DNA from: Corallococcus sp. EGB
GTDB taxonomy: Bacteria; Myxococcota; Myxococcia; Myxococcales; Myxococcaceae
NCBI RefSeq assembly: GCF_019968905.1
Contig: NZ_CP079946.1
Coordinates: forward strand, 5,601,356-5,665,355
Length of the DNA: 64,000 bases
Reading direction: 5' to 3'
Shown one piece after another: positions 8,159-54,426 of the stretch. The position numbers and the translations under genes were made by a program. The notes beneath the pieces are model-generated. The model did no database searches, was not told the origin of the DNA, and was given only the letters and a program-made list of their open reading frames with translations. Position 1 is the first letter of the stretch; the number at the start of each line of letters is the position of its first letter.

Positions 8159-8169
8159 GGAGCCACGCC

Positions 8170-8934
8170 ATGCCATTCGCGACGAAGTCCGGCCGCCGCA
8201 TCCACTACGAGGTCCAGGGCCACGGGCCGCCGCTGTTGCTCCTGCACGGCCTGCTCCAACTGGGCACGCACTGGGAGCTCAAGGGGTACCGGCCCGCGCT
8301 GACGGACAAGTACACGGTGGTGACGTTCGACGCGCTGGGGCACGGCTGGAGCGACACGCCGCACGACCTGGAGGCCTACCGGCTGCGGCACCGCGTGGAG
8401 GACGTGCTGTCGGTGCTCGACACGCTCTCCATCGAGCGGGCGCACATGTGGGGCTACTCGATGGGAGGCTGGACGGTGTGTGGCCTCGCGTCCTTCGCGC
8501 CGGAGCGGCTGGCGTCCTACGTGGTGGGCGGCTGGGATCCAGTGGTGGGCCTGCCTGTCGCGTACGCGGCGCTGGAGAAGCAGCTCAAGCCGGGCACGAA
8601 CGTGGACTGGTTCCAGGTACTCCTCATGGGAGCACGGCGCGCGCCAGAATTGGCCGAGGCCATTGACGCGGGAGACCTGGACGCGCTCCGGCTGTGCATG
8701 AAGGCTTGTGAGACATCGGCGGGCCTGGATGAGGCGCTGGTGCAATCCGGCAGGCCGGGGCTGCTCTATTGCGGCGCGATGGACCCGTACCACGACTCCA
8801 TGAAGGCCGTGGCACAACGGGCTGGTGCGGCGTTCGCGACCATCGAGCATGCCGACCACGGCGGAGCCTGGGCAAAGGCGCCCAAGGTGCTGCCGCACGT
8901 GCTGCCGTTCCTCGAATCAGTCGCCCGGTCCTGA
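8170..8934 (+). CDS. alpha/beta-fold hydrolase
   Basis: HGLLQLGTHWE with a GYSMGG nucleophile elbow (GxSxG) and a C-terminal His. Only 12 bp after the DUF4139 gene; agggag SD. Confidence 0.75.
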   Translation: MPFATKSGRRIHYEVQGHGPPLLLLHGLLQLGTHWELKGYRPALTDKYTVVTFDALGHGWSDTPHDLEAYRLRHRVEDVLSVLDTLSIERAHMWGYSMGGWTVCGLASFAPERLASYVVGGWDPVVGLPVAYAALEKQLKPGTNVDWFQVLLMGARRAPELAEAIDAGDLDALRLCMKACETSAGLDEALVQSGRPGLLYCGAMDPYHDSMKAVAQRAGAAFATIEHADHGGAWAKAPKVLPHVLPFLESVARS

Positions 8935-9000
8935 GGGTTCCATGACGCCTTTTTCCGCGAACCCTGGGTTGGGAGAAATCAGTTCTGGTAGCCGTCCGCT

Positions 9001-9528
9001 TCACCGCGTGGGCTGGATGGCAATCACCCGGACGTCGAAGTCCTTGCACTCGGCGTCTTTGCAGACGCCGTTGAGCCACGCTTCACCCTGGCCGAACATC
9101 ACGCCGTCCTCATTGACGAAGAGGTCCGCGTAGCGCTGCCGGGTGATGACCTTGGCGATGTCCGGCGTGACGATGACGTCGTAGTGCCTCCTGAACGCCG
9201 CGGCGTCGTGCAGCTTCACCTTCCTGCCGCCCACGTTCGCGGTGAAGGGATACGCCACCATCGCGGCGACGGCCTTCGTGTCATGCGCGGCCACCGCCTG
9301 CTGAAACGCCACGAAGGCCTGTTCATACTTCGAGGGATCACCAAGGACACGCTGGATGCGCGCATTGACCGCACCGGTGTCTTCAGTCGTCCCAGCATCG
9401 GGAGGTACGACCGCGAGGGAGGGCGGCGACGCGGGAGGGCGTTCGGTGTCTCCCCGCGACTCGGTGCGCTGACACGCAGCCGAGGACACGAGGACGAGGG
9501 CGGCCAACCGCTTGGAATTCTTTTGCAT
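9001..9528 (-). CDS. hypothetical lipoprotein
   Basis: MQKNSKRLAALVLVSSAACQ lipoprotein signal (lipobox SAAC); 175 aa. Confidence 0.55.
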   Translation of the reverse strand: MQKNSKRLAALVLVSSAACQRTESRGDTERPPASPPSLAVVPPDAGTTEDTGAVNARIQRVLGDPSKYEQAFVAFQQAVAAHDTKAVAAMVAYPFTANVGGRKVKLHDAAAFRRHYDVIVTPDIAKVITRQRYADLFVNEDGVMFGQGEAWLNGVCKDAECKDFDVRVIAIQPTR

Positions 9529-9591
9529 GAGTTCCCCCCGCCAGGGGCCGACAGCGCTCTCCTGGCAGAGGCGAACTCTACTGAGCCTGAC

Positions 9592-10752
9592 TCAACGCAG
9601 GCCTTGCACCAGCGTCTGAAGCTGCCGTCGCGCGGTCGACGCCGGAACGCGTCGGAATAGCGCATCGCGGACAAATCGCGCAGGGCCACTTTCCCACTGG
9701 GCCACCCGTCCCACCTGACGTGAACGCACCACCAACATGTTGGCGCGCTTCACCCGCCGGGCCTCGTAGGCCCGCAGTGCGTCCTCAACGCCCACCTGCG
9801 CCGCGAGACACTCCCCCAACACGACACCATCCTCGATGGCCTGACATCCCCCCTGCCCCAGGTTCGGCGTCATCGGGTGCGCGGCGTCGCCCAGCAGCGT
9901 CACACGCCCCCGGCTCCAATGCCGCACTGGCGGCCGGTCGTGGATGTCCGTGCGCAGGACGCGCTCGGGCGATGTCGCCGCGAGCAGCCGCGCGATAGGC
10001 GCATGCCATCCCGCGAAGCGCTCCTGGAGGACGGCGAGCTTCTGTCCCGGCGCATCCTCCGCGCCCGCGGGCGCATTCAACGTGGCGTACCAGTACACCT
10101 CGCCATGGCCGATGGGCACGGTGCCGAAGCGGGCACCGGGGCCCCACGTCTCGGTGAAGTGGCCCGCTTGCACCAGCTCCGCGCCCGCGCAGACACCGCG
10201 CCAGCTGGTGTAGCCGGAGTAACGCGTGGGCCGTGCCCCCAACAGGCCGGTCCGCACCGCGGAGCGCAGCCCATCCGCGCCCACCAGGACATCGCCGGTG
10301 GCCGTGCCGCCATCCGACAGCGTCACCGTGACGCGCTCGCCGTCATCGTGGAAGCCCGTCACGGCGACCCCCAGCCGCACGGCCTCCTCCGGGCCCGCGT
10401 GGGCGCGAAGGACGGCCTGGAGGCGGGCGCGGTGGATGGCCACCATCGGAGCCTGCAACTCCTCCTGGAGCGCACGCACGTCCACGCCGGTGATGACGGC
10501 CCCGGTTGGATCAAGGATGACGGTCCGCTCGGCGCGCTCGCCCTCCGCGACCACCGCGTCACACAGGCCGATGCGGCGCAGGGCGACCGAGGCGTTCATC
10601 TGCACGATGAGGCCCGCGCCCACGGGCCGCAGGGCGTCGGCACGCTCGAACACGGTGGCGCGCAAGCCCGCGCGCTGGAGTGCGCAGGCCAGCGTCAGGC
10701 CTCCAATGCCGGCACCGGCGATGAGGACGTGACGAGGAGCTGAAGACGGCAT
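9592..10752 (-). CDS. FAD-dependent monooxygenase (UbiH/salicylate-hydroxylase family)
   Basis: GAGIGGLTLA dinucleotide-binding motif at the N-terminus, a DG (GADGxxS) motif, a C-terminal GDAAH motif; start MPSSAPRHVLIAGAG with aggagg SD. Confidence 0.8.
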   Translation of the reverse strand: MPSSAPRHVLIAGAGIGGLTLACALQRAGLRATVFERADALRPVGAGLIVQMNASVALRRIGLCDAVVAEGERAERTVILDPTGAVITGVDVRALQEELQAPMVAIHRARLQAVLRAHAGPEEAVRLGVAVTGFHDDGERVTVTLSDGGTATGDVLVGADGLRSAVRTGLLGARPTRYSGYTSWRGVCAGAELVQAGHFTETWGPGARFGTVPIGHGEVYWYATLNAPAGAEDAPGQKLAVLQERFAGWHAPIARLLAATSPERVLRTDIHDRPPVRHWSRGRVTLLGDAAHPMTPNLGQGGCQAIEDGVVLGECLAAQVGVEDALRAYEARRVKRANMLVVRSRQVGRVAQWESGPARFVRDALFRRVPASTARRQLQTLVQGLR

Positions 10753-13977: not shown

Positions 13978-15129
13978 TCAGGCCGCGGAGGCCTCCGCCC
14001 GGGCATCCGCGGCGGACATCGCGGGAGCCGCGGCCTTCACCAGCCGCTTCATGGACGCCTTGCCCACGACGACGTCCACCATCTTGCGCGCGCGCGTCCA
14101 GACGCTCTCCTGCACGTAGGGGATGCCGTACCTCTCGCAGAGCGCCTTCACGTGCGGCTGCGCCTCGCGGTACTTCAGCATCGGCAGGTCCGGCCAGAGG
14201 TGATGCTCGATCTGGTAGTTCAGCCACAGGTGGGCGAAGTCGTTGACGTCACCGCCCGTGGCGTAGTTCGCGCTGCCCACCACCTGCTGCACCATGCGCT
14301 CCGCCTTGTTCGCGGGCGCCGAGTCGAAGCGGTACAGGTCCTCGCCGGTGTGGTTGGGCCCCACCACGAAGAACGTGTGGAGGTTGGTGACGACGTCCGC
14401 CAGCACGGAGTTGCAGAACACGCTGAACGCGGCCCACGGCCCCAGCACCAGGAACGCCGCCGGGTACAGCCCGAAGAAGACGGCCGCGTATGGCAGGTAG
14501 CAGCGCGTGATCAGCTCCCAGACCTCCGCGCGCGTCAGCGCCCCGCCCTCGCGCCGCCCCTTGCGCCGCAGCGAGCCCAGCGTCTCCGGCGCGTAGTAGC
14601 TCGCGCGCCACGTGAGGGCCAGGAGCCCCAGCTGCACGTAGCGCAGGGCCAGCGGCCGGCCTGTGTCGCGCAGCGTCCCCTCCGCGTTGCGCTCCAGCAG
14701 ATCCGGATCCGCCTCCTCGCCGGTGTGCGAGTGGTGCAGCACGTTGTGCTCGAAGACCCACGCCTCCGGCAGCATCCAGTCCAGCCAGTCCACGAACCGG
14801 CGGCCCCCCTTCGCGAAGCCCTTGCTCGTGCGCGACGCGGGCATGCCCGGCACGCGGTCATAGCCGCGGTGCCCCACGTGGTGCATGAGCAGCCAGCGGG
14901 TGGAGCGGCCCAGGCCCAGCGCCACCGCGGAGAGCGGGTTGGGGGCGATCCACGCCGTGGCCACGCCCAGCACCGACGCCACCTTGCCCCAGCGTTCCAT
15001 CTTCCGCAGGTGCGCCGCGTCCGCCTCGCCCAGGTTCGCGTCCAACTGCGCGCGCAGCGCCTTCAGCTCCCGGTAGAAGCCCTCCACGTCCACGGAGGAC
15101 ACATCGAAGTCGGGGGCGGCGCGCGACAT
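13978..15129 (-). CDS. membrane fatty-acid desaturase family protein
   Basis: His boxes HHVGHRGY, HNVLHHSH and QIEHHLWPD; several TM helices; start MSRAAPDFD with gaggag SD. Confidence 0.75.
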   Translation of the reverse strand: MSRAAPDFDVSSVDVEGFYRELKALRAQLDANLGEADAAHLRKMERWGKVASVLGVATAWIAPNPLSAVALGLGRSTRWLLMHHVGHRGYDRVPGMPASRTSKGFAKGGRRFVDWLDWMLPEAWVFEHNVLHHSHTGEEADPDLLERNAEGTLRDTGRPLALRYVQLGLLALTWRASYYAPETLGSLRRKGRREGGALTRAEVWELITRCYLPYAAVFFGLYPAAFLVLGPWAAFSVFCNSVLADVVTNLHTFFVVGPNHTGEDLYRFDSAPANKAERMVQQVVGSANYATGGDVNDFAHLWLNYQIEHHLWPDLPMLKYREAQPHVKALCERYGIPYVQESVWTRARKMVDVVVGKASMKRLVKAAAPAMSAADARAEASAA

Positions 15130-15224
15130 GCTGGAGGACTCCTCGGGTGCGGGACGGGAACCACGGCCGGATGCGGGGCGCACGGTAGCCTCCACCCGTC
15201 CCCGCGCAAAGCGTCCCGTCCCGC

Positions 15225-15701
15225 TCACCCGCCCGCAGGGCGGCGGGGCAGCACCAGCTTCGCGACGAGCACCTGCACCACCTCCCCCTTCTGGTTGCGC
15301 GTCTCGCTGCGCACGGTGGCGATGCCCCGGTCCGGCCGCGTGCGCGAGGGGGTGACCTCCAACACCTCGCTCTCCACATGGAGGACGTCCCCCGGGCGCG
15401 TGGGCCGGGGCCAGCGGATGTCTCCGCCCGCGCCCACGATGCCGCCCTTGAAGGGCAGTCCGCTCTGGACGTTGAGCTTCATGGTGAGGGCCGCCGTGTG
15501 CCAGCCGCTCGCCGCCAGGCCCTCGAACAGCGTGTCCTTCGCCGTGGCGTCGTCCAGGTGGAAGCCCTGCGGGTCGAACTCCCGCGCGAAGGCGATGATC
15601 TGCGCCGCGTCCAGCGTGTGCGTGCCGCTGATGAACTTCTGCCCCACCGACAGGTCGTCCAGGAAAAGCTCCCGGCGCCTACCCTCTTCCGTCGAAGCCA
15701 T
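15225..15701 (-). CDS. MaoC-like (R)-specific enoyl-CoA hydratase / hot-dog dehydratase
   Basis: Internal start MASTEEGRRRELFLDDLSVGQKF...; hot-dog fold signature; 158 aa. Confidence 0.7.
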   Translation of the reverse strand: MASTEEGRRRELFLDDLSVGQKFISGTHTLDAAQIIAFAREFDPQGFHLDDATAKDTLFEGLAASGWHTAALTMKLNVQSGLPFKGGIVGAGGDIRWPRPTRPGDVLHVESEVLEVTPSRTRPDRGIATVRSETRNQKGEVVQVLVAKLVLPRRPAGG

Positions 15702-17303: not shown

Positions 17304-18218
17304 TCAGGTGCTCACGCCAGGCCACGCCTCCGGCGCCAGCGTCAGGCGGAACGGCGGCGCGTCACCGCGCACCGTCCGCCACAGCGCCTTGTCCGCGCAC
17401 AGCGCCTGCGCGATGCGGCCGGACGTCGCGCGGATGCGCTCCACCACGGCCTGGTGCTCCTCCGGCGTCTGCGCCTCCAGCATCGCGACGACGTTCTCCC
17501 AGACGCGCTGCCGCCAGACGATGAGCATCTCCATCACCGCCCGCTCCACCACGGGACGGCTGAAGGGCATGCGCAGCAGCAGCCGCGTGGACACGCACCG
17601 GTAGCGCTCCGCGAGCAGGTCCACGCACTCCGGGATGCACGCGCGAAGGATGGTGTTCACGTGGAAGTAGTCGTGCCGGTAGCGAGCCAGGCGGCGAGCG
17701 TCCACCGGCGGCGACTGGTGCGCGATGCTGTCGTGGACCACCATTCCCAGGTCGTGGTTGATGTGGGCGCTCACGCCCAGCAGCGCGTCCTGATAGGGCT
17801 GTGTGATGCCCTGCGCGGGGTAATGCGTCGCGAACCGCCACGCCGCGCTGGGCAGCGGCCGGTGCATCAGCGAGTCCCGCACCGCGACGAGCGCCTCCTC
17901 CGCGAAGCGGCCTGTCAGGTGGGACAGCCACTCGGGTTCGAGGAAGCCGCCCGCGTCCGGCCGGTTCAGCAGGTGGACGACCCGCCGTGTGACGATCGCG
18001 TAGATGTCCAGGAAGATGGCGCGCGAGTCGCTCCGCGCGTTCAGCCGGCTGACAATCTTCTCCAGCCCCTCCAGCGCCTCCTCCGCGTCGACAGGATGCC
18101 AGAGCACGTCATCCAGCCGGATGGCGTCCCGCGCGTCGGGGGCCGTTGAATCATGGAGGTAGCGGGACTTGGGGGACTGCTTCCGGGTGGCCTGGGAGAA
18201 GGCCGGTGAGACGTTCAT
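17304..18218 (-). CDS. conserved hypothetical protein
   Basis: Start MNVSPAFSQ chosen within ORF 17304..18320; globular helical composition; lies 57 bp downstream of the cytochrome c gene. Confidence 0.45.
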   Translation of the reverse strand: MNVSPAFSQATRKQSPKSRYLHDSTAPDARDAIRLDDVLWHPVDAEEALEGLEKIVSRLNARSDSRAIFLDIYAIVTRRVVHLLNRPDAGGFLEPEWLSHLTGRFAEEALVAVRDSLMHRPLPSAAWRFATHYPAQGITQPYQDALLGVSAHINHDLGMVVHDSIAHQSPPVDARRLARYRHDYFHVNTILRACIPECVDLLAERYRCVSTRLLLRMPFSRPVVERAVMEMLIVWRQRVWENVVAMLEAQTPEEHQAVVERIRATSGRIAQALCADKALWRTVRGDAPPFRLTLAPEAWPGVST

Positions 18219-18376
18219 GGCGAGCGCTCCGCGGGAGGGGGGAACGACTTCACCTGAAAGCCTATCGAAACCGGCCCTCCCCTCAAAGACGGCCCACCGC
18301 GATTTGACGTCTTGTTTCACCAGCCCCCCGCGCGTTGGCTCTCACGCGGGGGGGCTGTGTCACACGAACGTCAATT

Positions 18377-19633
18377 TCAGGGCGCGGTGCCTTCGCTCAC
18401 GCCACTGCCCGTCTTGCCCAGCACGTACTTCGCGAGCGACAGGGCGTTGTTCTCATCGATGAGCGACTCGTAGGTGGGCATCTGCGTGCCGGGCTTGAAG
18501 GACTCCGGGTTGCGGATCCACTTGGCCACTTCCTCCGGGGCCTTGCCCTTGGCGCCCTGGAGCTTGGCCTCGTAGGCCTTGCCGGCGGCGTGGCAGGTCG
18601 CGCAACCCAGCGCGCTGAACATCTTCTCGGGGTCGCTGTTGGAGGGCTCGACCTTGGGGCGGCCACCGGTGGGCGGCGGCACCACCTTGTCGTTGGCCTT
18701 CACGGAGCGCAGGAAGGTGTAGAGGGCCGAGAGCTCCACGTCGTCCGCGTAGCGGTACTTGGGCATGGGCGGGCGGAGGATGAAGCCGCCGGGCGTGATG
18801 CCGGTGACCATCGCGTGCTTGAACTCGTCCAGCGTCCACTTGCCAATGCCGGCTGTCTCGCTGGGGGTGATGTTGGGCGACAGCAGCTTGCCCTCGCCGC
18901 CCAGCGGCACCAGGTCGAACTCGAAGCCGCCGCTCAGCAGCGTCTCCGGGTGCTGCATCTTCACCGCGCTGCTCTCCAGGCCCGGCGAGTGGCAGAAGGT
19001 GCAGTCGTAGACGGCGGAGGCGATGTAGCGGCCGTACTCCACGGAGTCCGCCGCCTTCGCGGGCACGGGCACCGGCTCCGTGCGGCCCTTGTCGTTGATG
19101 CCCATGGCGAACGCGAACGCCATGCGGCCCGGAGGCGTCAGCTCGGAGCGCGGCGGCTGCTGCTTCTCCGGCGCGAAGTCCGGGTGCCCGGAGCGCATGA
19201 AGCCGATGACCGCCGCGATGTCCTTGTCACCCATGTTGGGGAACGGGGGCATGGGGCGGAAGTGGTTGTTCTTGTCGATGCCGTTGATCACCATGCGGGC
19301 GATCTCCTGGTCCGTCCAGGCGCCCACGCCCATCTCCATGTCGGAGGTGATGTTGGCCGAGTAGAACGTGCCCAGCTCGGCCGGGAAGTCGTGCATCCGG
19401 CCGCCCACGGGCTTGGTGTTGCCGCCGCCCGCGTGGCACTCGCCGCACACCGCGCGGAACACCTGCTCACCGCGGGCAATGCCCTCCGGCGAGCTGTCCC
19501 GCGTGATGTTGGGCAGCGCGACGTAGTCATACGTCTTGTTGATCTTGTGGGTGGCGACACCCATGGCGGTACCCGCGCCAATCAAGGCCAGCGCGACCAG
19601 GACGCCTACGGCGATCAGGATCTTTTTCATCAT
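18377..19633 (-). CDS. membrane-anchored c-type cytochrome with three CxxCH heme sites
   Basis: N-terminal TM anchor MMKKILIAVGVLVALALIGAG; heme motifs CGECH, CTFCH and CATCH spaced about 140 aa apart (three class-I-like domains). Confidence 0.8.
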   Translation of the reverse strand: MMKKILIAVGVLVALALIGAGTAMGVATHKINKTYDYVALPNITRDSSPEGIARGEQVFRAVCGECHAGGGNTKPVGGRMHDFPAELGTFYSANITSDMEMGVGAWTDQEIARMVINGIDKNNHFRPMPPFPNMGDKDIAAVIGFMRSGHPDFAPEKQQPPRSELTPPGRMAFAFAMGINDKGRTEPVPVPAKAADSVEYGRYIASAVYDCTFCHSPGLESSAVKMQHPETLLSGGFEFDLVPLGGEGKLLSPNITPSETAGIGKWTLDEFKHAMVTGITPGGFILRPPMPKYRYADDVELSALYTFLRSVKANDKVVPPPTGGRPKVEPSNSDPEKMFSALGCATCHAAGKAYEAKLQGAKGKAPEEVAKWIRNPESFKPGTQMPTYESLIDENNALSLAKYVLGKTGSGVSEGTAP

Positions 19634-19729
19634 GGGGAACGGTGCTCCGAACGAACGGGGACACGGGACTCCGCCATCCCTCGGGACGGGATGGACGGAG
19701 CGGAGGCGCTGCGACTGTGACTGCGGCTG

Positions 19730-20842
19730 CTACTGCCCGGGCAGACAGGTGGTGAGCGGGGGAATCGAGATGGTCGTCGTGGGGACGGTGCTGTTCACCT
19801 GGAGCCCGGCGAACGTGACGATGCCCGGGACCTGCGGGATTTCCAGCGGCTGGAACGCGAAGCGCGGGCCCTTGCCCGGCGCGATCTCCAGCGTGTCCTT
19901 CACCGTGTAGGTGATGTTCGCCGGAGGCCCCATCAGCGGCGGCTGCACGACGACGATGATGCCCAGCTTGCTGCTGGCCGCCGGCGGTCCCGGGGGGATG
20001 AAGAAGCCGCGCGCGGACTGCAGCGGCGCCAGGGGTGGAGGCAATGCGCCCGGAGGCGCCCAGTCGATGTGGAACACACGTCCGCTGGAGGCTTCCACCG
20101 TCGTGCTGTCCGCGGGCACGCGGAACACGGGGAAGCCCGGGGCGTAGAGCCAGAACACCGTCACGCCGCCGTACTTCGCCGGGTTGAGCAGGTCCGCCAC
20201 CGTCACGGACGTGCTGGTCTCGGCGCTGAGGGACCGGGCCACCGCGTCCAGGATGCCCTTGTCGCTCATCTGGAGCGCTTCCAGGCCCACGCACGCGCTG
20301 TGGGCCGGCACCACCGGGCGCACCGTCATGGTGGTCAGGTAGTTGCCCGCCGGCACGGGCGGCAGCGGGAAGGGCCCCTGGACGTCATTGGCCACGGTCC
20401 CCGGCCCCGGCACGGACAGGACGAAGTACGGCGCGCCCCTGCGGGTGGGCACCTTCTCCATCGTCCACAGGCCATGCGCGTCCGACGGCACGGGCGCGGC
20501 CGGCGCGGGGGGCATGTGGGTGACGGGATCCGGCACCGTGTCCTGCAGCGTGACGAGCGCGCCGCGCACCACCGAGCGCTGGAACAGCGGGCTGAACTCC
20601 GCGTACAGCGGCGGCAGCGCGCACTGCGTGCCCGGAGGGGCGCAGTGGGCCAGGTTGAAGAAATAGGCCTCCGGGTCCACCGCGAAGCCGGAGAGCCGCG
20701 AGGTGAGACCCTCCGGCTCGCGGTTCTCGTAGACGGGGCGCGGCGTGAAGTTCGACGCCGCGGGGGAGGAGGTGTTGTCCTGGCAGCCGGCGTTCAGCAG
20801 GGCCGCGCCGAGGAGCGTTCCGACGAAGAGGGCTCTGTGCAT
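19730..20842 (-). CDS. hypothetical Pro-rich lipoprotein
   Basis: Lipoprotein signal MHRALFVGTLLGAALLNAGCQD; 370 aa; lies between the two cytochrome genes with 15-bp and 97-bp gaps. Confidence 0.55.
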   Translation of the reverse strand: MHRALFVGTLLGAALLNAGCQDNTSSPAASNFTPRPVYENREPEGLTSRLSGFAVDPEAYFFNLAHCAPPGTQCALPPLYAEFSPLFQRSVVRGALVTLQDTVPDPVTHMPPAPAAPVPSDAHGLWTMEKVPTRRGAPYFVLSVPGPGTVANDVQGPFPLPPVPAGNYLTTMTVRPVVPAHSACVGLEALQMSDKGILDAVARSLSAETSTSVTVADLLNPAKYGGVTVFWLYAPGFPVFRVPADSTTVEASSGRVFHIDWAPPGALPPPLAPLQSARGFFIPPGPPAASSKLGIIVVVQPPLMGPPANITYTVKDTLEIAPGKGPRFAFQPLEIPQVPGIVTFAGLQVNSTVPTTTISIPPLTTCLPGQ

Positions 20843-20857
20843 GGCGGGTTGCGTCCC

Positions 20858-22768
20858 CTACTTCGCGGGGAGGATGTGGCGGGAGGGGAGCTGATCGCCG
20901 CCGTGGCACGTCTGCGCGCAGGTTCCGAACTTGCTGGGCGTGCCGCGCTGGCTGAAGGCGATCTGGAAGAACTCGTCACCGTGCTGCGAGATGTGGCACG
21001 AGCCGCACAGCGCCAGGCTGGGGCGCTCCGTGCTCTTGCGCGTCAGGTGGCACACGCTGCAGTCCGCGCGGTTCGCCGGGTAGCTGGGCGAATTCATGTG
21101 GATGCGGTGCACCATCTCCTGCGTGCGGCCCACGGTGTCCGTGTCGTAGTGGTGGCAGACCTTGCAGCTCTCGATGTGGTCCACCGACAGGCCGTGGCGC
21201 AGGTTGTCCAGCGACAGCACGCCGCGGTGGCACAGCTGGCAGTTGCCCACGTTGCCCGGGTACGTCGTCGGCTCGTCCTGGCCCACCTGGAAGAAGAAGG
21301 GGTTCAGCTTCGCGATGCGCTCGCCCATGGCCCCGCGGTTGAACTTCACCAGCGCCACGTAGGTGCCCGGCTTCGCGTTCGCCGGCAGCGTGAACGTCTG
21401 GCGCGTGGGCCACCTGTAGTCGATGAGGCCCGGCGTCAGGCCCGTGAGCGTGGCGTCATCGTAGACGGGGAACGGGAACGGCTTGGCGAAGAACTGCGGC
21501 GTGTCGCTCGGGTTGCCCAGCACCTTCAGGTCCTGCAGCGGCCCCGCGATGGCCACGTTGGAGATGGTGTCGTTCTCCGCCGTGATGGAGATGACGCCGG
21601 GGACGAAGGTCAGCAGGCCGTTGGACTGGCCACCGATGATGTCCCGCGCGCTGGGCAACAGGTCCGGGGAGTGCAGGTGCGCCCCGGAGCTGTCGCGCAG
21701 GTCGATGTAGACGCTCACGTCCTCGCCGGGCTTGTAGAAGCTGCCCTCCTTCGGAGGAGAGAAGACCAGCCGCGAGTCCAGGCCCGGGCTGCACTGCACC
21801 GGGTTGCCCGCGTCGTCGGTGCACGTGGACGGGCGCTCATCCGGGATGACGTACGTCACCGGGAAGTAGAACGGCTTGTCCGGCAGCTGGCTCCAGGTGG
21901 CCCGGAGCGCGCCGGGGCCCGACAGGCGCGGGATGCGCAGCACCTTGAACGGGTTGGTGCTGCCCACCCAGTCCACGCGCGCGATGGTGCGGGTGGTGGG
22001 GCTCTGATCCAGGCCGCCCGTGATGCCCGTGACGGTGCCGGGGTCCTTGTCGCCGGGGAAGCGCGGCGCCTTCAGGTTCTCCGACCGCCAGGCGAAGCGG
22101 CTGTGGCCGGCGTAGGGCGAGGAGGCCAGCAACTCCGAGCGCAGGTACGTCTGGCTCGCGCGCGGGGCGCCCGTCTCGTCCAGCACCTCCACGGTGATGG
22201 TGTCGTCCTTCACCTTCTGCCAGTTCGCGTTGCCGAACTGCACCTCACGCGTCCAGCAGTCCTCCACCGCGCCCGCGAGGCTGTAGAAGCTCCACTCGTC
22301 CGGCCCCTGGTTGACGTTGGTCCAGTCCAGGCCGGCGAACACCGTCTGGGTCTTGATCCAGTTGAGCGCCGGCGTCAGGTCGGTGGGGTTGGTGTGCTGG
22401 TTGACCACGCTCTCCGTCACGGAGAACTGGTTCAGGAAGTACTGCGTATCCGACAGGATCTGCATCGTCCCCTGGGGGGGCGACAGCGTCAGCGGGTTCT
22501 GCGCGAGCGGCGTGACGCACACGTCCGGGTACGGGACGGGCACGCCGTTCTTCGCCACCATCTGCCCGTTGGGCAGGAAGGCGCAGCCGTTGATGTACTG
22601 GAGACTCAGTCGGATCGCGCCGGAGTTGAGGCCCTGGTACGGGTCGAACCGCTTGGCGCCGCGGCCCGTCGTGGATCCCTCGTCGTCAGTGACCTTGAGG
22701 AGGTTGCAGGACAGCAGGGGCACCAGCAGGGCGCACCACGCGCTCTTCAGCAGGATTGAGCGGTTCAT
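20858..22768 (-). CDS. multiheme c-type cytochrome lipoprotein with a large N-terminal non-heme domain
   Basis: Lipoprotein signal ...LLVPLLSCNL; about 480-aa beta-rich N-terminal region; C-terminal cluster CQLCH, CKVCH, CSVCH, CGSCH plus CAQTCH (CX3CH). Confidence 0.75.
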   Translation of the reverse strand: MNRSILLKSAWCALLVPLLSCNLLKVTDDEGSTTGRGAKRFDPYQGLNSGAIRLSLQYINGCAFLPNGQMVAKNGVPVPYPDVCVTPLAQNPLTLSPPQGTMQILSDTQYFLNQFSVTESVVNQHTNPTDLTPALNWIKTQTVFAGLDWTNVNQGPDEWSFYSLAGAVEDCWTREVQFGNANWQKVKDDTITVEVLDETGAPRASQTYLRSELLASSPYAGHSRFAWRSENLKAPRFPGDKDPGTVTGITGGLDQSPTTRTIARVDWVGSTNPFKVLRIPRLSGPGALRATWSQLPDKPFYFPVTYVIPDERPSTCTDDAGNPVQCSPGLDSRLVFSPPKEGSFYKPGEDVSVYIDLRDSSGAHLHSPDLLPSARDIIGGQSNGLLTFVPGVISITAENDTISNVAIAGPLQDLKVLGNPSDTPQFFAKPFPFPVYDDATLTGLTPGLIDYRWPTRQTFTLPANAKPGTYVALVKFNRGAMGERIAKLNPFFFQVGQDEPTTYPGNVGNCQLCHRGVLSLDNLRHGLSVDHIESCKVCHHYDTDTVGRTQEMVHRIHMNSPSYPANRADCSVCHLTRKSTERPSLALCGSCHISQHGDEFFQIAFSQRGTPSKFGTCAQTCHGGDQLPSRHILPAK

Positions 22769-23017
22769 GGAAGACGAGGCCGGAGGCAGTCAGGGGAAGG
22801 AAGGGGAGCAGGTGTCCACACGCGCGGGCCCACACGACCCACCGTTCCCGACGCCGCCACCCTTCCGCCACGCGGAGAGGGTGAGGTCCGGGAAGGGTTG
22901 GGAGGAGAACACCTCATCGGTTCGAACTGACCACATTATGAGAGTCCGCGCAATTCGTGGACAGCAGATCACACCGGGGAAATCGCGCGGAGTGGTCGCG
23001 TGACTCAGGGCGTCGGA

Positions 23018-23944
23018 CTAGAGGCTGAGGCCGGCGGACAGGAGCAGCGCGAAGACGAGCCCCAGCGCCGCGGTCTTCCCCAGGTGGGGGTTGAGCGCGC
23101 CGCCATCCTCGCGCCAGATGGCGCGGATCTGCCTCACCGCGAGTGGCAGGGCCGCCAGCGTGAGGAGCCAGGCCTTGGGGTGCTCCGGCGTCACCGCCCA
23201 GACGAGCACCGGGAGCGCGAACGCGCCCGCCACGGCCACCGTGTACTCCCACTGGCCGAAGCGCTGGCCGAAGCGGACCACGAGCGTGCGCTTGCCGGCG
23301 ACGACGTCCGTCTTGCGGTCGCGCAGGTTGTTCACCGCGAGGATGCCGGCGGAGAACAGCCCCATGGACAGCCCCGCCAGCAGCACCGCCGGCGTGACGT
23401 GATGGGTGAGCACCCCGTAGCTGCCGCTCACCCCCAACAGGCCGAAGATGATCAACACCAGCACGTCCCCCAGGCCCAGGTAGCCCAGGGGGACGGGGCC
23501 CGCGGAGTAGAAGACCGCGCCGCCCAGGCAGAAGGCGCCGCCCAGGAACACCGGCCACCCATCCACCTGGGTCAGGAGCAGCAGCGCGAGCGAGGAGCCG
23601 GTGAACGCCAGCGCCGCGGCCGTGGCCACCTCGCGCGCGGTGAGCCAGCCCTTCTGCGTGACGCGCGCGGGGCCCAGGCGCGCCTCCGTGTCCGCGCCCC
23701 GTTCGAAGTCCGCGTAGTCATTCACCAGGTTGCTGACGATCTGCATGAGCACGAAGCCCACCAGGAACGTGAGCGCCGGCACCGGCTGCCAGTGCCCTTC
23801 CGCGTGGGCGAAGGCCCAACCCAGCAGCGTGGGGGCGATGGAGGCGGTCAGCGTCTTGGGCCTGAGGGCGAGCCACCAGACGCGGGCCAGAGGGGGTTTC
23901 ACTTCAACCGCGACACTCGACGACGGGGAAATCGGGGCGGCCAT
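23018..23944 (-). CDS. menA: 1,4-dihydroxy-2-naphthoate polyprenyltransferase (UbiA superfamily)
   Basis: NDYADFERGAD motif and a second Asp-rich region; 8-9 TM helices; start MAAPISPSS within ORF 23018..24049. Confidence 0.8.
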   Translation of the reverse strand: MAAPISPSSSVAVEVKPPLARVWWLALRPKTLTASIAPTLLGWAFAHAEGHWQPVPALTFLVGFVLMQIVSNLVNDYADFERGADTEARLGPARVTQKGWLTAREVATAAALAFTGSSLALLLLTQVDGWPVFLGGAFCLGGAVFYSAGPVPLGYLGLGDVLVLIIFGLLGVSGSYGVLTHHVTPAVLLAGLSMGLFSAGILAVNNLRDRKTDVVAGKRTLVVRFGQRFGQWEYTVAVAGAFALPVLVWAVTPEHPKAWLLTLAALPLAVRQIRAIWREDGGALNPHLGKTAALGLVFALLLSAGLSL

Positions 23945-24030
23945 GGGTCTCCGGGGGAGGGAGCAGGCGCACGGTAAAGCTACAGGCCCAGGGGCCGCAA
24001 GAGGACCCAATGAATCACATTGGTTGCCCT

Positions 24031-24050
24031 CATGTATCACCTGATACATG
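24031..24050. promoter_or_regulatory. perfect palindrome (9-bp arms, 2-bp spacer), candidate operator in the menA/slt divergent region
   Basis: catgtatca-cc-tgatacatg, AT-rich in a 70% GC genome; a second inverted repeat ccaatg-aatca-cattgg lies at 24007..24023. It sits 87-106 bp upstream of the menA start and 470 bp upstream of slt. Confidence 0.35.
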
Positions 24051-29599: not shown

Positions 29600-30484
29600 T
29601 CAGGCGGCCAGCTTCTCTCCGCCGCCGTCCACGGGCCCACCGGAGAGCGCGGCGACCTCGTGCTCGCTCAGCACGAGCTTCTCCTCGGAACCGCGCCAGA
29701 CGAACGGGATGCCGGGCTGCCGGTAGAGGTTCGCGGGGATGTCGCGCGCGAGCTGCGCGTGCAGCTCCGGCAGCTTGGACCAGTGCAGCCCGTGCCGCGT
29801 GTGATGCGCGGTGTGGTAGCCCAGGTTGCCCGTCATCAGGTTGTAGCCCTTGTGGAGGATGTTGTACGAGGCCTCCGAGTGGTTGGCCGTCTCCAGGCCC
29901 ACGTGGTGGAAGTACGTCGCCCAGGTCGTCACGTAGAGCGACGCCATCATGGGCAGGAGGAACACGAACAGCGCGTTGTAGGGGTTCACCCAGAACAGGC
30001 CCGCCAGCAGCACCAGCTGGAGCGCGGCCATCCCCACGAACGTGCGCAGCGCCTTGGGGTGGTGCTTCCTCCCCACCTGGAACGCGCGCGGATACGCCGT
30101 CAGCGCCGTGCCCAGCGAGTACTCCACCTCCCCCATCGTCGAGCCGTCATCCCGCTTCCAGCGCGACTCGTCCTGCGTCTGGTCCAGGTAGTTCTTGTGG
30201 TGGCCCAGCACGTGGTGGAGGAACCACGCCTGCGACGTCACGCCCGTCTGGAAACCGAAGACGATCTCCAACAGGCGGTTGGGCAGCGTGTGCTTGAAGA
30301 AGGACAGGTGCTGGTGGTGGTGGTTCCACGAGCAGATCCATCCCTTGGGGATGATGCCCAGCCCGAACCACAGCACCGGCACCCACCAGCTCCGGGCCAT
30401 GAGGAACACCGTCACATCGAGCGCGAACACGCCAAGGAACATCAGGACCGGGATGCGATCTTCAGGGTGCCGGAACAGGGTCAT
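29600..30484 (-). CDS. membrane fatty-acid desaturase/hydroxylase family protein
   Basis: His boxes NHHHQH, HHVLGHH and HTAHHTRH; 4 TM helices; start MTLFRHPEDRIPVLMF within ORF 29600..30592. Confidence 0.7.
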   Translation of the reverse strand: MTLFRHPEDRIPVLMFLGVFALDVTVFLMARSWWVPVLWFGLGIIPKGWICSWNHHHQHLSFFKHTLPNRLLEIVFGFQTGVTSQAWFLHHVLGHHKNYLDQTQDESRWKRDDGSTMGEVEYSLGTALTAYPRAFQVGRKHHPKALRTFVGMAALQLVLLAGLFWVNPYNALFVFLLPMMASLYVTTWATYFHHVGLETANHSEASYNILHKGYNLMTGNLGYHTAHHTRHGLHWSKLPELHAQLARDIPANLYRQPGIPFVWRGSEEKLVLSEHEVAALSGGPVDGGGEKLAA

Positions 30485-30705
30485 GCGCCTTCCGAGACAA
30501 GGGGAGCCAGGGCCAAAATGCCGCTTTTCCAACTGTAGGCCGCCTCCCCCCACCCCGAACAGCCCGCCCTCGCCCGCCTGCACGTTCCACACTGGCGGTA
30601 AACAACGTAGTCACGTTGAACTTGTATTTCCACAATTCCAAGAATGCCAGTCCTGCATTGTGATAAACGCCGACCCAGCCCTTTTGGACCCACCTGGAGG
30701 CAGCG

Positions 30706-37483: not shown

Positions 37484-37567
37484 GTGCTCGATGCTGCGTC
37501 GAGGATGAGGCCCGCAGTCTAGGGGGCCCGCCTGACGGGACAAGGAATGCGCCCGGCGCGCCCCGCG

Positions 37568-41860: not shown

Positions 41861-41877
41861 CCTCGGGGGCTTTCCGC

Positions 41878-42279: not shown

Positions 42280-42415
42280 GATGGCGGACGTGGCTGGGGC
42301 CGGGTGTGCTCCCCGCCGGGCGCGGCCCAACCCCACGCCGTCCATCCTAGAATCTTTTCCGACCCCGTGGGGTGCCTTCCCCCCTCCCCACCCGCGCCTC
42401 CAGCCCGCCCGCCGC

Positions 42416-42946: not shown

Positions 42947-43189
42947 GACTGCGTCCTCCACGAAAGACCGGAACTACGTGTGCCCCTGTTCCATGCGAAT
43001 GCCCGGCCAACGCGGCAAGGGATCACGAACCTCCGGGCGTCCCCGCTCCCGTCCACCCGTGGAAGGTGCGTGACGCGAGCGTCACCTGACCGTCGCTTCC
43101 CTCCGCCCGGGGCGCCAGACGCGGGCTGCACGACCCGTGATGTCGGACCCCTCCTCTACCTTCGGCACAACCAAGCGAGGAGGCCGCCC

Positions 43190-43414
43190 ATGTTGGACGC
43201 CTGTGGAGGTTGTGAGCGCCGTGGCACCGCCAGAGAGGTGTTCGACGGGGGCGAGCTGCGGGAGCTGCCGGACCCGCCCCCTCCCGAGCGCGACGCCCTG
43301 CCGGAGGACTTCGGGGGCCGCTGCTGCACGCATGCCCGCGCGGAGCCGTGCTCGTGCGCCTTCCACTGGGTCTGTGCCCGCCACGGCGACCTGCACGTCG
43401 GCACCCATGACTGA
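43190..43414 (+). CDS. small Cys-rich protein (74 aa), possible zinc-ribbon
   Basis: MLDACGGCERRG...GRCCTHARAEPCSCAFHWVCARHGD with 7 Cys; strong gaggagg SD 7 nt upstream. Confidence 0.4.
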   Translation: MLDACGGCERRGTAREVFDGGELRELPDPPPPERDALPEDFGGRCCTHARAEPCSCAFHWVCARHGDLHVGTHD

Positions 43415-43510
43415 AACGCGAGTGCGGCCGTTGACACATGGGCAGTCGGTCCACGACGTTTCCCACGACTCCGGGCACGGCTGCCCGCGAAGGAATCGGA
43501 GCACGACACC

Positions 43511-43903
43511 ATGGGGCTCGCCGAACGTCAGGAACTGGCCGCGTTCAAACAGGACACCCTCCCAGCGAAGCTGGCGGAGCTGAAGGAGGCCGCGCGCGGG
43601 GCGGACCTCCAGGTCACGCTCGACGAGGAGAGCTTCACCACGGTGGCCGCCATCCAATGGCTGTCCCATGGCATCTTCGACCGGCTCATCGACGACATGA
43701 GGCGCGTCTGCGGCGATGCCATTGGAAAGCAGGCCGTGCGGGAGGGGCTCCAGCGGGTCCACCTCGTTCACCAGGAGGCGCCGGGCTACACGCTGGAGCT
43801 GAAGGACGGCACCCTCACCGTCCGGGCGAAGCTGGACGGCTCCATTGGCGACGACCTGCCCGGCTACGGCACCTACAAGGACTTCTTGTACAAGAAGCTG
43901 TAG
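43511..43903 (+). CDS. hypothetical protein (130 aa)
   Basis: MGLAERQELAAFKQDTLPAKLAELKEAARG...; globular composition; SD ggag upstream. Confidence 0.45.
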   Translation: MGLAERQELAAFKQDTLPAKLAELKEAARGADLQVTLDEESFTTVAAIQWLSHGIFDRLIDDMRRVCGDAIGKQAVREGLQRVHLVHQEAPGYTLELKDGTLTVRAKLDGSIGDDLPGYGTYKDFLYKKL

Positions 43904-43974
43904 GCCGCATGCCTTCCGGGCAGGAGAGCCGCCCTGTCCCAGGGCGGCTCCCAACCCGTGTCATTCCGTCCGGC

Positions 43975-47283: not shown

Positions 47284-47287
47284 CCGC

Positions 47288-48130: not shown

Positions 48131-48138
48131 ACAAGGCC

Positions 48139-50745
48139 CTAGTAGTGGAGCCGGACTTCGGTGAAGACGCCCAGCGGCGGGGCGGGGAAGCCGTGGGACT
48201 CCTCGTACTTCGCGTTGAAGAGGTTGGTACCCAACAGGGACACCGCCACGCGCTCGTGGACGTTGAAGCCCACGCGCGCGGTCGCGGTGATGTAGCTGGG
48301 CAGCTTCACGCGGGTGGTGGTGCCGGCGTTCTCATCCACCACGAAGCCCGGATCATACCGTGCGCCCACGAACAGGCCGTAGAGCTCCACGAAGGCGAAC
48401 TTGCCGATGTTGGTGCGGCCGCGCAGGTACACGCGGTGGCTGGGCGCGTAGTCCAGCGGGTAGCTGGCCCCGCCGCCCACCGGCAACGCCTGGGCGTCCA
48501 GGAACTGGTAGGCCACGTCGAAGGACGAGTTGAGGGACGGCACCTGCGCCGCGGCCTCCGCCTCGAAGCCCGCCACGCGCGCGTCGCCCAGGTTCTGGAA
48601 CTGCGAGGTGGAGCCGAAGAGGAGCTCCTGGTTGATGAAGTTCCGGGCGCGGTTGTAGAAGCCCGTGCCCGTCAGGCGCACCTTGCGGTCGAAGGGCCAG
48701 AAGTCCACGGCCGCCTCCACCGTGTCCAGCGTCTCCGCGCGCAGCGCCGGGTTGCCCAGCAGCGTCGCGGCGTACATCTGCTGGTTGATGGCCAGCTCCG
48801 CCAGCGTGGGCGCGCGGAAGGCGCGGCCGTAGTTGGTGCGCAGCGTGAGCAGCTCCGGGATGGCGTGGAACACGACGCTGGCGCGAGGGGAGATCTGATC
48901 CGTGCGCTCCGACCAGACCTTGGAGGGGATCTGGTAGTTGTCGTACCGGGCGCCGCCGCCCACCACCAGCCGGTCCGTGATGCGGTACTCCGCGTCCACG
49001 AAGCCGCCCAGGATGGTCTGCTTCGTGTCGTCCAGGGTCAGGCCGGGGAGGACGTTCTGGTTGTTGACCTGGTCGGCCTTGATGTCGCCGCCCACGGTGA
49101 CGGACAGCTTGTCCAGGGAGAACAGCGCGCGCGCCTCGCCGCCCAGGCGGCTGCGCTTGCCGAGCGTGTCCTCCAGCGCGCCGGTGATCTCGTTCTCCAG
49201 CGTCACGTTGCGGCGCTTGAAGAACGCGTAGCCCTGGGCGAACACGCGCACGTTGTCCGTCACCTGCTGATCCAGCTGCAGGGCGGCGTTGAGGTTCTGG
49301 ACGTGCTCGTTGTCCTGCGCGGTGTAGTGGCAGCGGCCGCAGTTGCCCACGGTGGAGATGTTCTGACCGCCGGGCCGGCCGATGTTGCCGTCGGTGAAGT
49401 CCGCGTCCAGCGCAAGGGGGCCCACGCGGACCTTGCCGTTCACCTGGTGGACCAGCGAGTCCTCGTTGGTGTCCGTCTGGTTGAGCTGCGGGTTGTTGAA
49501 GAGCTGCGGGCCGTCCGAGCCGAACCCGTAGTAGCCGAGCAGCGCCTCCACCGGGCCGCCGCGGCCGGCGACGTTGGTCTGCAGGCGCCAGGTCTTGTCC
49601 TGGCCCGCGAGGATGCGCGCGTCCGCGCCCACGTTCTGGCCCTTGGCGATGAGATCGCCGGGCTGGCGCTCGATGATGTTGATGACGCCGCTGAAGGCGT
49701 TGGAGCCGTAGAGCGACGAACCCGGGCCGCGAATCACCTCCACCTGCTTCAGGTTGGTGAGCGGCGTCGTCTCATCCGCGTAGAACTGGCCCGTCCAGGG
49801 GTCCGTCAGGGGACGGCCGTCCTTGAGGAGCAGGAGCCGGTTGGACAGGTAGTTGGAGCCCAGGCCGCGCGCGCTCACCGCCGCCTTGCGCATGGAGCCC
49901 CGGCGGCACTCCATGCCCGGGAAGTACTGGATGGCCTCGCAGAGCGAGAACTGGCCGGTGCCCTCCAGCTCCTCCGCCGGAATCCAGGACACCGTGAGGG
50001 GCACGTCGGAGATGCGCTGGCTGCGCTTGGAGGCCGTGGTGACGACGGCCTCGCTCAGCGCCATGTTGATGTTCTTCTCCAGGTCGTCGCCTCCGCCCAG
50101 GTCCGGGCCGTCCAGGCCGGAGAGGCTGGAGGGCGGCGGCAGCGCGCGGTCCGGGGTGGGCTCCGTGAAGGGCGCGCGGTCCGGGACGTTGGTCGCCGCG
50201 CGCGGCTGCGACGACGGCAGCACCGCGCCGGAGCCCAGCGCGGGCGGCGGGTTGGAAGGAACGTCGGTGGTCAGCGGCCCGTCATAGGGCGACGTGGGCG
50301 AGGCCACGGGCAGCGGATCCGACACGGACGGGCCGGGGCCGGCCAGCGGGGGCGGAGGCGGCGTGTGCGCCGGCTCGTTGGCGAGCGCGGGCTCCTGCGG
50401 CTGGGTGGGCGCCTCGTCCGGAATGAACTCCGGCTCCACCGGCGGAGGCGGCGTCTTCGCGCCCCGGCGCGTCTTCGCGGCGCGCGGCGGCTTCGCCCCC
50501 GGAGTCGCCGTCTTCGCGCCCGGGGAGGTGGCCGCCTTCGCGCCCGGGGGGGTGGCCGCGCGTTTGCGGGCCGTCTTGGTCCGCGTCTTGGAGGCGGGCT
50601 CCTGGGCCTCCTGGGCCCGGGCCGTCTCCAGCGTGAACAGGGACAGCGCGCAGACCACCAGGGTAAGGCATGCGCGCGCGCTCAGCCGCCCGGCAAACCC
50701 CTTCACCGCGTTGGTGCGCGGCCCACCGTACTCAGTCGAGTCCAT
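48139..50745 (-). CDS. TonB-dependent outer-membrane receptor with a long Pro/Ala/Lys-rich N-terminal extension
   Basis: Signal peptide, then about 200 aa of low-complexity sequence (AKAATSPGAKTATPGAKPP...), plug (EVIRGPGSSLYGSNAFSGVINII), beta-barrel and a C-terminal aromatic strand VRLHY. Contains a CGRCH motif. Confidence 0.8.
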   Translation of the reverse strand: MDSTEYGGPRTNAVKGFAGRLSARACLTLVVCALSLFTLETARAQEAQEPASKTRTKTARKRAATPPGAKAATSPGAKTATPGAKPPRAAKTRRGAKTPPPPVEPEFIPDEAPTQPQEPALANEPAHTPPPPPLAGPGPSVSDPLPVASPTSPYDGPLTTDVPSNPPPALGSGAVLPSSQPRAATNVPDRAPFTEPTPDRALPPPSSLSGLDGPDLGGGDDLEKNINMALSEAVVTTASKRSQRISDVPLTVSWIPAEELEGTGQFSLCEAIQYFPGMECRRGSMRKAAVSARGLGSNYLSNRLLLLKDGRPLTDPWTGQFYADETTPLTNLKQVEVIRGPGSSLYGSNAFSGVINIIERQPGDLIAKGQNVGADARILAGQDKTWRLQTNVAGRGGPVEALLGYYGFGSDGPQLFNNPQLNQTDTNEDSLVHQVNGKVRVGPLALDADFTDGNIGRPGGQNISTVGNCGRCHYTAQDNEHVQNLNAALQLDQQVTDNVRVFAQGYAFFKRRNVTLENEITGALEDTLGKRSRLGGEARALFSLDKLSVTVGGDIKADQVNNQNVLPGLTLDDTKQTILGGFVDAEYRITDRLVVGGGARYDNYQIPSKVWSERTDQISPRASVVFHAIPELLTLRTNYGRAFRAPTLAELAINQQMYAATLLGNPALRAETLDTVEAAVDFWPFDRKVRLTGTGFYNRARNFINQELLFGSTSQFQNLGDARVAGFEAEAAAQVPSLNSSFDVAYQFLDAQALPVGGGASYPLDYAPSHRVYLRGRTNIGKFAFVELYGLFVGARYDPGFVVDENAGTTTRVKLPSYITATARVGFNVHERVAVSLLGTNLFNAKYEESHGFPAPPLGVFTEVRLHY

Positions 50746-50981
50746 CGTTCTCAATTCCACGAGGGGGAAGCAGGGATGTCCGCGGTCCTTGCGCCAGGAG
50801 CCAGAGCCGGTGCGACTGGCAATCGCTCAGGGGGTCGAGTTTCCACCCCTGAACGATGGCGTTCCGCTCGACTTCTCAAATTACCGCAATAACTCGCCTT
50901 AGGCCAAGTCATGGCTGTCGATCGCGGCAAAACACGCGCACGGCGACGGGAGCGCCGTGCGCTGATCAGCCCACGGCGCAA

Positions 50982-54418: not shown

Positions 54419-54426
54419 GCGGTTCG

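Follow-up and report, generated by a model that had tools for sequence, protein, structure and literature searches.

Our analysis concerns a small group of minus-strand genes in Corallococcus sp. EGB that encode two lipoproteins and a cytochrome c, here called MHC, PRO, and TRI, and that lie in a 64,000-nucleotide stretch of contig NZ_CP079946.1 (positions 5,601,356 to 5,665,355), referred to below as the window. MHC (20858..22768) is a pentaheme lipoprotein of 636 amino acids, PRO (19730..20842) a proline-rich lipoprotein of 370 amino acids, and TRI (18377..19633) a triheme class I cytochrome c of 418 amino acids. On the same strand they are flanked by menA (23018..23944) upstream and a DUF5995 gene (17304..18218; PF19458, 155.7 bits) downstream, and the gaps between the five genes measure, in order, 249, 15, 96, and 158 bp. 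All five open reading frames lie where the initial annotation of this DNA, made by reading the letters, had placed them. At full length the menA frame is 23018..24049; the start at 23944 corresponds to an internal methionine (Met36) and keeps menA clear of the divergent SLT gene, located at 24010. The full-length DUF5995 frame is 17304..18320, with 18218 as the start chosen in the initial annotation. The identity of menA holds, with 190.9 bits for TIGR00751 (cutoff 102.15) and 111.5 bits for PF01040 (UbiA), and a score slightly below the cutoff for NF004751 (249 versus 264). Among the genes of the window, those annotated as neighbors of the module encode an Omp85/POTRA protein, the DUF5995 protein, MenA, and an SLT transglycosylase.

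MHC is 100% identical to WP_223633284.1. It has a lipobox (LLSC21) whose Cys21 is invariant in an alignment of 20 homologues, and its five heme motifs fall within residues 510 to 622 (CQLCH, CKVCH, CSVCH, CGSCH, and CAQTCH), after about 485 residues without heme motifs, in good agreement with the roughly 480 first reported. We scanned one genome per species and obtained 62 loci, whose neighboring genes were compared by tblastn and clustering. The exact pattern of four CxxCH motifs and one CxxxCH motif is present in 64 of 64 homologues. In the 20-sequence alignment the five motif histidines, five further histidines, and two cysteine pairs in the N-terminal part are likewise invariant. The ten histidines appear to fit bis-His ligation of all five hemes, and because of the five additional ones there would be no obvious open coordination or catalytic heme site. 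The conserved cysteine pairs in the non-heme parts fit an oxidizing, extracytoplasmic location.

The best matches of the pentaheme domain are MtrC and MtrF, with weak scores. The top Pfam family is PF22113 (MtrC/MtrF domains II/IV) with 23.1 bits against a curated cutoff of 30 (E-value of 6e−5), a family matched by 13 of the 20 MHC family members at E-values below 1e−3, and TIGR03507 scores 16.6 against a cutoff of 209. Searched against all PDB sequences, the MHC family profile found solely MtrC (E-value of 0.0028) and MtrF (0.02), and the motif YPGxxGNCxxCH is common to the MHC family and the start of MtrF domain IV. The AlphaFold2 model is confident and all-β for residues 50 to 500, and the N-terminal region is predicted to consist of Ig-like/macroglobulin-like β-sandwich domains without a catalytic fold. 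As a separate observation, residues 35 to 44 (window positions ~22637 to 22666, minus strand) contain the sequence GRGAxxFDPY, invariant in 20 homologues. The segment directly follows the lipid anchor and is modeled with low confidence, probably as a flexible tether, and the motif in it may serve as an epitope for docking or sorting.

PRO has the lipobox (NAGC20) and the high proline content (14.9%) that had been noted initially, and searches of Pfam, NCBIfam, and the PDB gave no match to its sequence. Its model (predicted local distance difference test [pLDDT] score of 80) is composed of β-sandwiches resembling transthyretin, CarboxypepD_reg, and CnaB domains. Conserved cysteines are present, yet there is no redox motif.

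TRI has one N-terminal hydrophobic helix and three heme motifs (CGECH, CTFCH, and CATCH), consistent with its earlier description as a membrane-anchored triheme cytochrome, and it matches PF13442 and PF00034. Its matches in the PDB are FAD-glucose dehydrogenase β (8hdd_B; E-value of 1.7e−23, residues 39 to 350 on 15 to 340), the cytochrome subunit of fructose dehydrogenase (7w2j_C; 1.3e−19), alcohol dehydrogenase subunit II (8gy2_B; 4.2e−14), and aldehyde dehydrogenase (8gy3_A; 1.9e−10), and the C-terminal domain resembles the cytochrome c domain of caa3 oxidase subunit II (2yev_B; 1.2e−4). The methionines of the segments PMPP, PPMP, and TQMP are kept in relatives and are the putative heme ligands; those of domains 1 and 2 are kept in every aligned relative, and that of domain 3 in all triheme forms. 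In the homologous membrane dehydrogenases the triheme subunit (subunit II) reduces ubiquinone (PMC9171043), and by this homology TRI belongs to a family whose known members exchange electrons with the membrane quinone. Apart from their hemes, MHC, PRO, and TRI hold no recognizable catalytic center.

MHC has ~130 close relatives in the databases, and all named ones belong to the Myxococcaceae or Archangiaceae. Where these proteins carry a name at all, it is “hypothetical protein,” “lipoprotein,” or “cytochrome c (c3) family protein.” MHC is followed by PRO, adjacent and in the same direction, in 60 of the 62 loci, and judged from sequence and gene order PRO is an obligate, non-redox partner of MHC. 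A TRI-type cytochrome c with three or two hemes lies nearby, usually adjacent, in 36 loci; the synteny search proposed initially thus does link a cytochrome c to the lipoproteins. The TRI-type gene is found downstream of PRO in the Corallococcus coralloides group, whereas it immediately precedes MHC in most Hyalangium-type loci (with three hemes and a membrane helix) and in Myxococcus-type loci (as a lipoprotein with two hemes). The DUF5995 gene, the Omp85 gene, and direct adjacency to menA are confined to the C. coralloides group, with menA directly by the cytochrome genes only in 10 Corallococcus loci and the window, and DUF5995 beside the module only in 7 Corallococcus loci. Hence, the five genes do not form the single island first proposed; the conserved unit is an MHC-PRO core, with or without TRI, plus lineage-specific neighbors. 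A profile search of 1.84 billion representatives revealed a more distant tier of MHC-like lipoproteins of 595 to 670 residues with the same four-plus-one motifs in Deltaproteobacteria metagenome-assembled genomes (MAGs) and Pendulispora albinea. The distant MHC-like lipoproteins of L063 and L064 are 32 to 35% identical to MHC over residues 262 to 622. A related 566-residue protein from a Planctomycetota MAG has only three CxxCH motifs, and no more than 8 proteins were recovered when the alignment of the distant family was used in a word-indexed search.

The Myxococcus-type operons start with a gene for a cytoplasmic Rieske/VanA-like oxygenase. In Myxococcus xanthus (L039) this Rieske/VanA_C gene (7899-8897) overlaps the start of the diheme lipoprotein cytochrome c gene (8894-9886) by 4 bp, and the order oxygenase, diheme cytochrome, MHC, PRO recurs in ~20 Myxococcus-type loci. 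A gene for a cytoplasmic oxygenase is here combined with genes for exported cytochromes. Divergent from the operon lies a gene of cluster c4 (L039 5645-7627, minus strand, and 22 other loci) for a secreted protein of 470 to 850 residues without a family match (for the 660-residue protein, none in Pfam, NCBIfam, or the PDB), whose C-terminal half might form an outer membrane β-barrel. The locus L034 (BNCN01000002.1, “Comamonas sp. KCTC 72670”) is a typical Myxococcus-type locus, comprising c4, Rieske oxygenase, diheme cytochrome, MHC, PRO, and TldD/PmbA, and its organism label is probably wrong. Arrays of small open reading frames upstream of Myxococcus-type loci were rejected as a gene-calling artifact, with AMP-binding and nonribosomal peptide synthetase-like matches on the opposite strand.

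Why is a menaquinone synthesis gene next to these cytochromes? The link is found in several forms. Besides menA-MHC-PRO-TRI in Corallococcus, we found menF-TRI-MHC-PRO-...-menD-...-menA-menC-menE in Hyalangium versicolor (L023) and a MAG (L011), TRI-MHC-PRO-menF in a second MAG (L010), and a third MAG (L043) with menA on the minus strand followed by TRI-MHC-PRO-menF. In all, the module has men genes at its flanks in four loci outside Corallococcus, and the arrangements overall number at least four. MenD, MenA, MenC, and MenE of L023 score above their NCBIfam cutoffs, as do isochorismate synthase and MenA in the loci tested. A chorismate-binding gene near MHC in L045 is PabB/TrpE-like and not MenF, and therefore this locus was not counted as men-linked. 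Since a genome of several thousand genes contains only a handful of men genes, their repeated occurrence beside the module suggests a functional tie to the quinone pool. We regard this gene-order linkage as moderately good evidence for such a tie, with shared ancestry as the alternative explanation.

The intergenic region upstream of MHC (22769..23017, minus strand) contains a block (22766-22965) with a mean column identity of 90% over ~200 nucleotides in 11 Corallococcus loci, of which the first ~70 nucleotides are invariant. The gap had been described as a lower-GC, promoter-like spacer of about 250 bp; its length is correct (249 bp), but its GC content is only modestly lower than that of the whole window (0.655 versus 0.704). 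At the start of the block is a 7-5-7 inverted repeat (GTCCACG-AATTG-CGCGGAC; GTCC(A/G)CG-AATTG-CGCGGAC across the 11 loci), followed by CATAAT and a GC-rich leader, and its central hairpin shows a few compensatory pairs. No match to the sigma-70 consensus was found in the intergenic block, and neither a sigma-70 consensus nor a terminator separates the genes. We propose that the block probably provides the module with a promoter, an operator, and a 5′ leader of its own. A riboswitch is not claimed, because the leader is conserved no better than the adjacent MHC coding DNA (76 to 90% versus 86 to 93% identity); in addition, Rfam at permissive thresholds gave nothing credible for the leader, its folding energy is ordinary (z-score of −0.69), and nhmmer found it only in the C. 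coralloides group. The inverted repeat was uninformative as a regulon motif, with 11 matches versus 4.6 expected and all the others within genes.

A second region of the window bears on the history of the module. Positions 35260-54430 are collinear with L013 (1-20890), at 52 to 83% amino acid identity, and both have the order TPR protein, periplasmic binding protein, TonB-dependent receptor, 287-residue protein, Ser/Thr kinase, SLOG, c36, cyclase-STAND (cyclase-AAA-TPR), and radical SAM. In L013 the kinase and SLOG genes enclose MHC-PRO, and the counterpart site in the window (42962..43974; no strand assigned) is empty. Seven further loci have MHC-PRO directly beside the SLOG/c36/cyclase-STAND/radical-SAM block. 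Because the block is collinear and lacks MHC-PRO in the window, it seems that in the C. coralloides group the module left an older location and was transferred over ~20 kb to its present place directly downstream of menA.

The same region encodes a TonB-dependent receptor with plug and barrel domains (48139..50760, minus strand), 75% identical to the receptor of L013 and 52% identical to that of L048. In L031, L041, L048, and L050 a receptor gene either overlaps MHC or PRO or directly adjoins one of them, and in L013 and L042 it is found no more than 4.3 kb from MHC-PRO. The receptor of the window falls in the same receptor cluster as the operon-linked ones, which makes it a candidate partner of MHC-PRO. 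Of three genomic contexts examined for the distant MHC-like proteins, two have a receptor gene directly downstream: in L063 (6057-14866) tandem MHC-like lipoproteins lie between a 1,287-residue multiheme cytochrome and the receptor gene, and in L064 (2057-6132) the MHC-like lipoprotein gene directly precedes it. The third has neither a receptor gene nor a multiheme cytochrome. L031, L041, and L042 have a gene for a CCP/MauG diheme peroxidase (cluster c64) beside MHC-PRO and no TRI-type cytochrome gene nearby.

We hypothesize that MHC, PRO, and TRI form a quinol-linked extracytoplasmic electron transfer chain, a reading that is plausible to us and that we put forward tentatively. TRI would be held in the inner membrane by its N-terminal helix and exchange electrons with the menaquinone pool. 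The Myxococcaceae are generally reported to use menaquinone as their respiratory quinone, and this, together with the family to which TRI belongs, suggests TRI as the link between the menaquinone pool and MHC. MHC is a lipoprotein with five apparently bis-His hemes in an MtrC-type domain that sits on tandem Ig-like β-sandwiches, and PRO would most likely form a complex with it, as a scaffold or docking subunit. As MHC has no open heme site and no catalytic fold, it would exchange electrons by an outer-sphere mechanism with a partner that is either periplasmic or located at the outer membrane. Most likely, the direction is from menaquinol via TRI and MHC to an acceptor. The gene content, the motifs, the homologies, and the conserved linkage are observed; what we infer here, from the genes and their homologues, is the quinone contact, the complex formation, the direction, the location, and the terminal partner.

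Several points weigh against this hypothesis. The similarity between MHC and MtrC is weak, below the curated thresholds of both PF22113 and TIGR03507. All solved relatives of TRI work with a catalytic dehydrogenase subunit and feed electrons into quinone, and no such subunit is encoded here. The apparent ligation of the hemes, His/Met in TRI versus bis-His in MHC, leaves the direction of electron flow unfixed. Next to menA, the cytochrome genes carry a conserved upstream region of their own, and the adjacency could be recent since the module seems to have been relocated there. Men genes are absent within 10 kb of the module in 35 of the 62 loci (Myxococcus type), and these loci have instead the diheme lipoprotein cytochrome c preceded by the Rieske oxygenase gene. 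Our literature search found no paper or experiment on the MHC/PRO/TRI family.

The initial interpretation is upheld only in part: the tie of quinone synthesis genes to the cytochromes recurs in other genera, but the direct contact with menA belongs to a single group and the men-less loci are many. The apparent relocation of the module and the men-less loci would also fit a module with no tie to menaquinone, the adjacency to menA being the result of rearrangement or shared ancestry and the cytochrome set serving, for example, a diheme peroxidase or redox sensing. The presence of a CCP/MauG gene in place of the TRI-type gene in three loci points the same way, as does the commonest older context of the module, a Ser/Thr kinase and a cyclase-STAND regulator. 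We nevertheless consider this explanation unlikely, as the men arrangements across Corallococcus, Hyalangium, and MAG lineages would be hard to obtain by chance and the family of TRI is quinone-reactive.

The link to TonB-dependent receptors suggests another role, in which MHC and PRO work with the receptor in reductive uptake, for example, of Fe(III) chelates or another oxidized substrate that is reduced during uptake with electrons from the quinone pool or periplasmic cytochromes. Given the receptor genes that overlap, abut, or neighbor MHC-PRO, those that follow the distant MHC-like lipoproteins, and the position of the window's own receptor in a block that carries MHC-PRO in L013, this is the most interesting specific role, and it could sit on top of the quinol wiring. 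Even so, we judge it improbable. The link is limited to 8 of 64 loci, and in the window the receptor is ~25 kb away from the module. No iron regulation site, siderophore-binding domain, or ferrous iron transporter was identified, myxobacterial receptors of the same class also have roles other than uptake, and the idea comes from gene neighborhood alone. A bolder version combines the two proposals into a menaquinol-fed “half-MtrC,” with MHC and PRO docked to a TonB-dependent receptor, which would take the place of a porin-cytochrome, for reductive uptake or extracellular reduction of, for example, mineral or chelated Fe(III) or prey-derived oxidants. We would call this version rather speculative and quite unlikely.

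Electrons could also flow inward. In a dehydrogenase-type complex, MHC-PRO would oxidize an extracytoplasmic donor, such as a metal in its reduced state, a shuttle of the humic or phenazine-like kind, or a compound derived from prey, and TRI would pass the electrons to menaquinone or a terminal oxidase, in the manner of its homologues in acetic acid bacteria. Every solved TRI relative is the quinone-reducing subunit of a periplasmic dehydrogenase (PMC9171043), and the likeness of the TRI C-terminal domain to the cytochrome domain of caa3 subunit II would suit transfer to an oxidase. Yet no gene for a catalytic flavoprotein or for a pyrroloquinoline quinone (PQQ) or molybdopterin enzyme was found among the annotated window genes near the module or in the conserved neighbor clusters of the relatives, and neither MHC nor PRO itself has a catalytic domain, be it of the flavin, PQQ, molybdopterin, or another type. 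In addition, all five MHC hemes appear six-coordinate, and from general redox chemistry the reduction of low-potential menaquinone by hemes that appear to be His/Met ligated would be energetically unfavorable. We consider inward flow doubtful. An assignment of the cytochromes to a standard respiratory complex (as cbb3 CcoP, a bc1 cytochrome c, or part of alternative complex III), the possibility that the initial annotation had named as its own refutation, is extremely improbable: the match to PF13442 (“Cytochrome_CBB3”) is to a generic class I cytochrome c model, TRI scores far below the cutoffs for CcoP (TIGR00782, 23.5 bits versus 179.95) and QcrC (NF050122, 18.1 versus 200), no oxidase, bc1, or alternative complex III genes (ccoNOQ, qcr/pet, or act) are present among the annotated window neighbors or the relatives' conserved neighbor clusters, and the cytochrome is tied to the lipoprotein pair in 36 loci.

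The proposed quinol-linked chain resembles known systems in some respects and departs from all of them in others. Like MtrC, OmcA, MtrF, and UndA of Shewanella, MHC is a lipoprotein that joins β-domains to a pentaheme module with hemes of the bis-His type, and the spacing of its first four heme motifs and a distal histidine align with MtrC domain II. The CxxxCH motif also occurs in UndA. Unlike the MtrC-type proteins, with two pentaheme domains and 10 or 11 hemes, MHC has one such domain and 5 hemes, scores below the curated cutoffs, and is always paired with PRO, an unrelated β-sandwich lipoprotein. No gene for an MtrA/MtrB-type or other porin-cytochrome system occurs among the annotated window neighbors or the annotated neighbor clusters of the 62 loci. 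The hosts of MHC also differ from those of MtrC, as the Myxococcaceae and Archangiaceae are described as aerobes.

TRI is similar to alcohol dehydrogenase subunit II, the β subunit of FAD-glucose dehydrogenase, and fructose dehydrogenase subunit II in having three class I cytochrome c domains and a membrane attachment, and the homology covers the first two domains and reaches into the third (E-value of 1.7e−23). It differs from them in its N-terminal helix anchor, in the absence of genes for a catalytic or small subunit, and in having a pentaheme lipoprotein as its partner; moreover, the quinone reported for the host group is menaquinone, whereas the dehydrogenase systems use ubiquinone. The Myxococcus relatives of TRI have lost the third domain and are lipoproteins instead.

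The logic of the proposed chain is similar to that of CymA-MtrCAB, in which electrons pass from the quinol pool to an inner membrane c-type cytochrome and on to an outer membrane-anchored multiheme lipoprotein. In contrast to that system, the quinol-side protein TRI is outside the NapC/NirT (CymA) family, there is no periplasmic decaheme protein or porin among the annotated neighbors, and the sole candidate for passage through the outer membrane is the TonB-dependent receptor of some relatives. The translational coupling of the lipoprotein gene pair to a receptor gene in several relatives recalls TbpA/TbpB and SusC/SusD, by analogy only. MHC, unlike TbpB or SusD, is a cytochrome and has no sequence or fold relation to either, and most loci, like the immediate neighborhood of the module in the window, lack the receptor link.

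MtrC-type multiheme lipoproteins are a hallmark of mineral- and electrode-respiring bacteria, and a conserved relative of them that looks single-copy, MHC, is present in most of the sampled genomes of Myxococcus, Corallococcus, Pyxidicoccus, Archangium, and Hyalangium. This suggests a redox activity of the envelope, not looked for before, in soil predators that are described as aerobes. M. xanthus is reported to encode 34 c-type cytochromes, and the traditional myxobacteria are described as strictly aerobic (PMC2330069). The initial statement that myxobacteria have no extracellular electron transfer overlooks the respiratorily versatile Anaeromyxobacter, with 68 putative c-type cytochromes (PMC2330069). 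The links to men genes and to TonB-dependent receptors provide two concrete, testable hypotheses, and M. xanthus is genetically tractable. If a receptor-docked half-MtrC were to exist, it would amount to an unrecognized outer membrane redox system, in which electrons reach the cell envelope through a new architecture. Should the function turn out to be mundane, our work would still provide the first description of ~130 uncharacterized database proteins and replace a five-gene island with a core of two or three genes.

Apart from the module, the window contains three separate genes of the fatty acid desaturase family within 24 kb, all on the minus strand (13978-15228, 29600-30592, and 36653-37543). 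One of them lies beside a MaoC dehydratase gene and another beside the cyclase-STAND gene.

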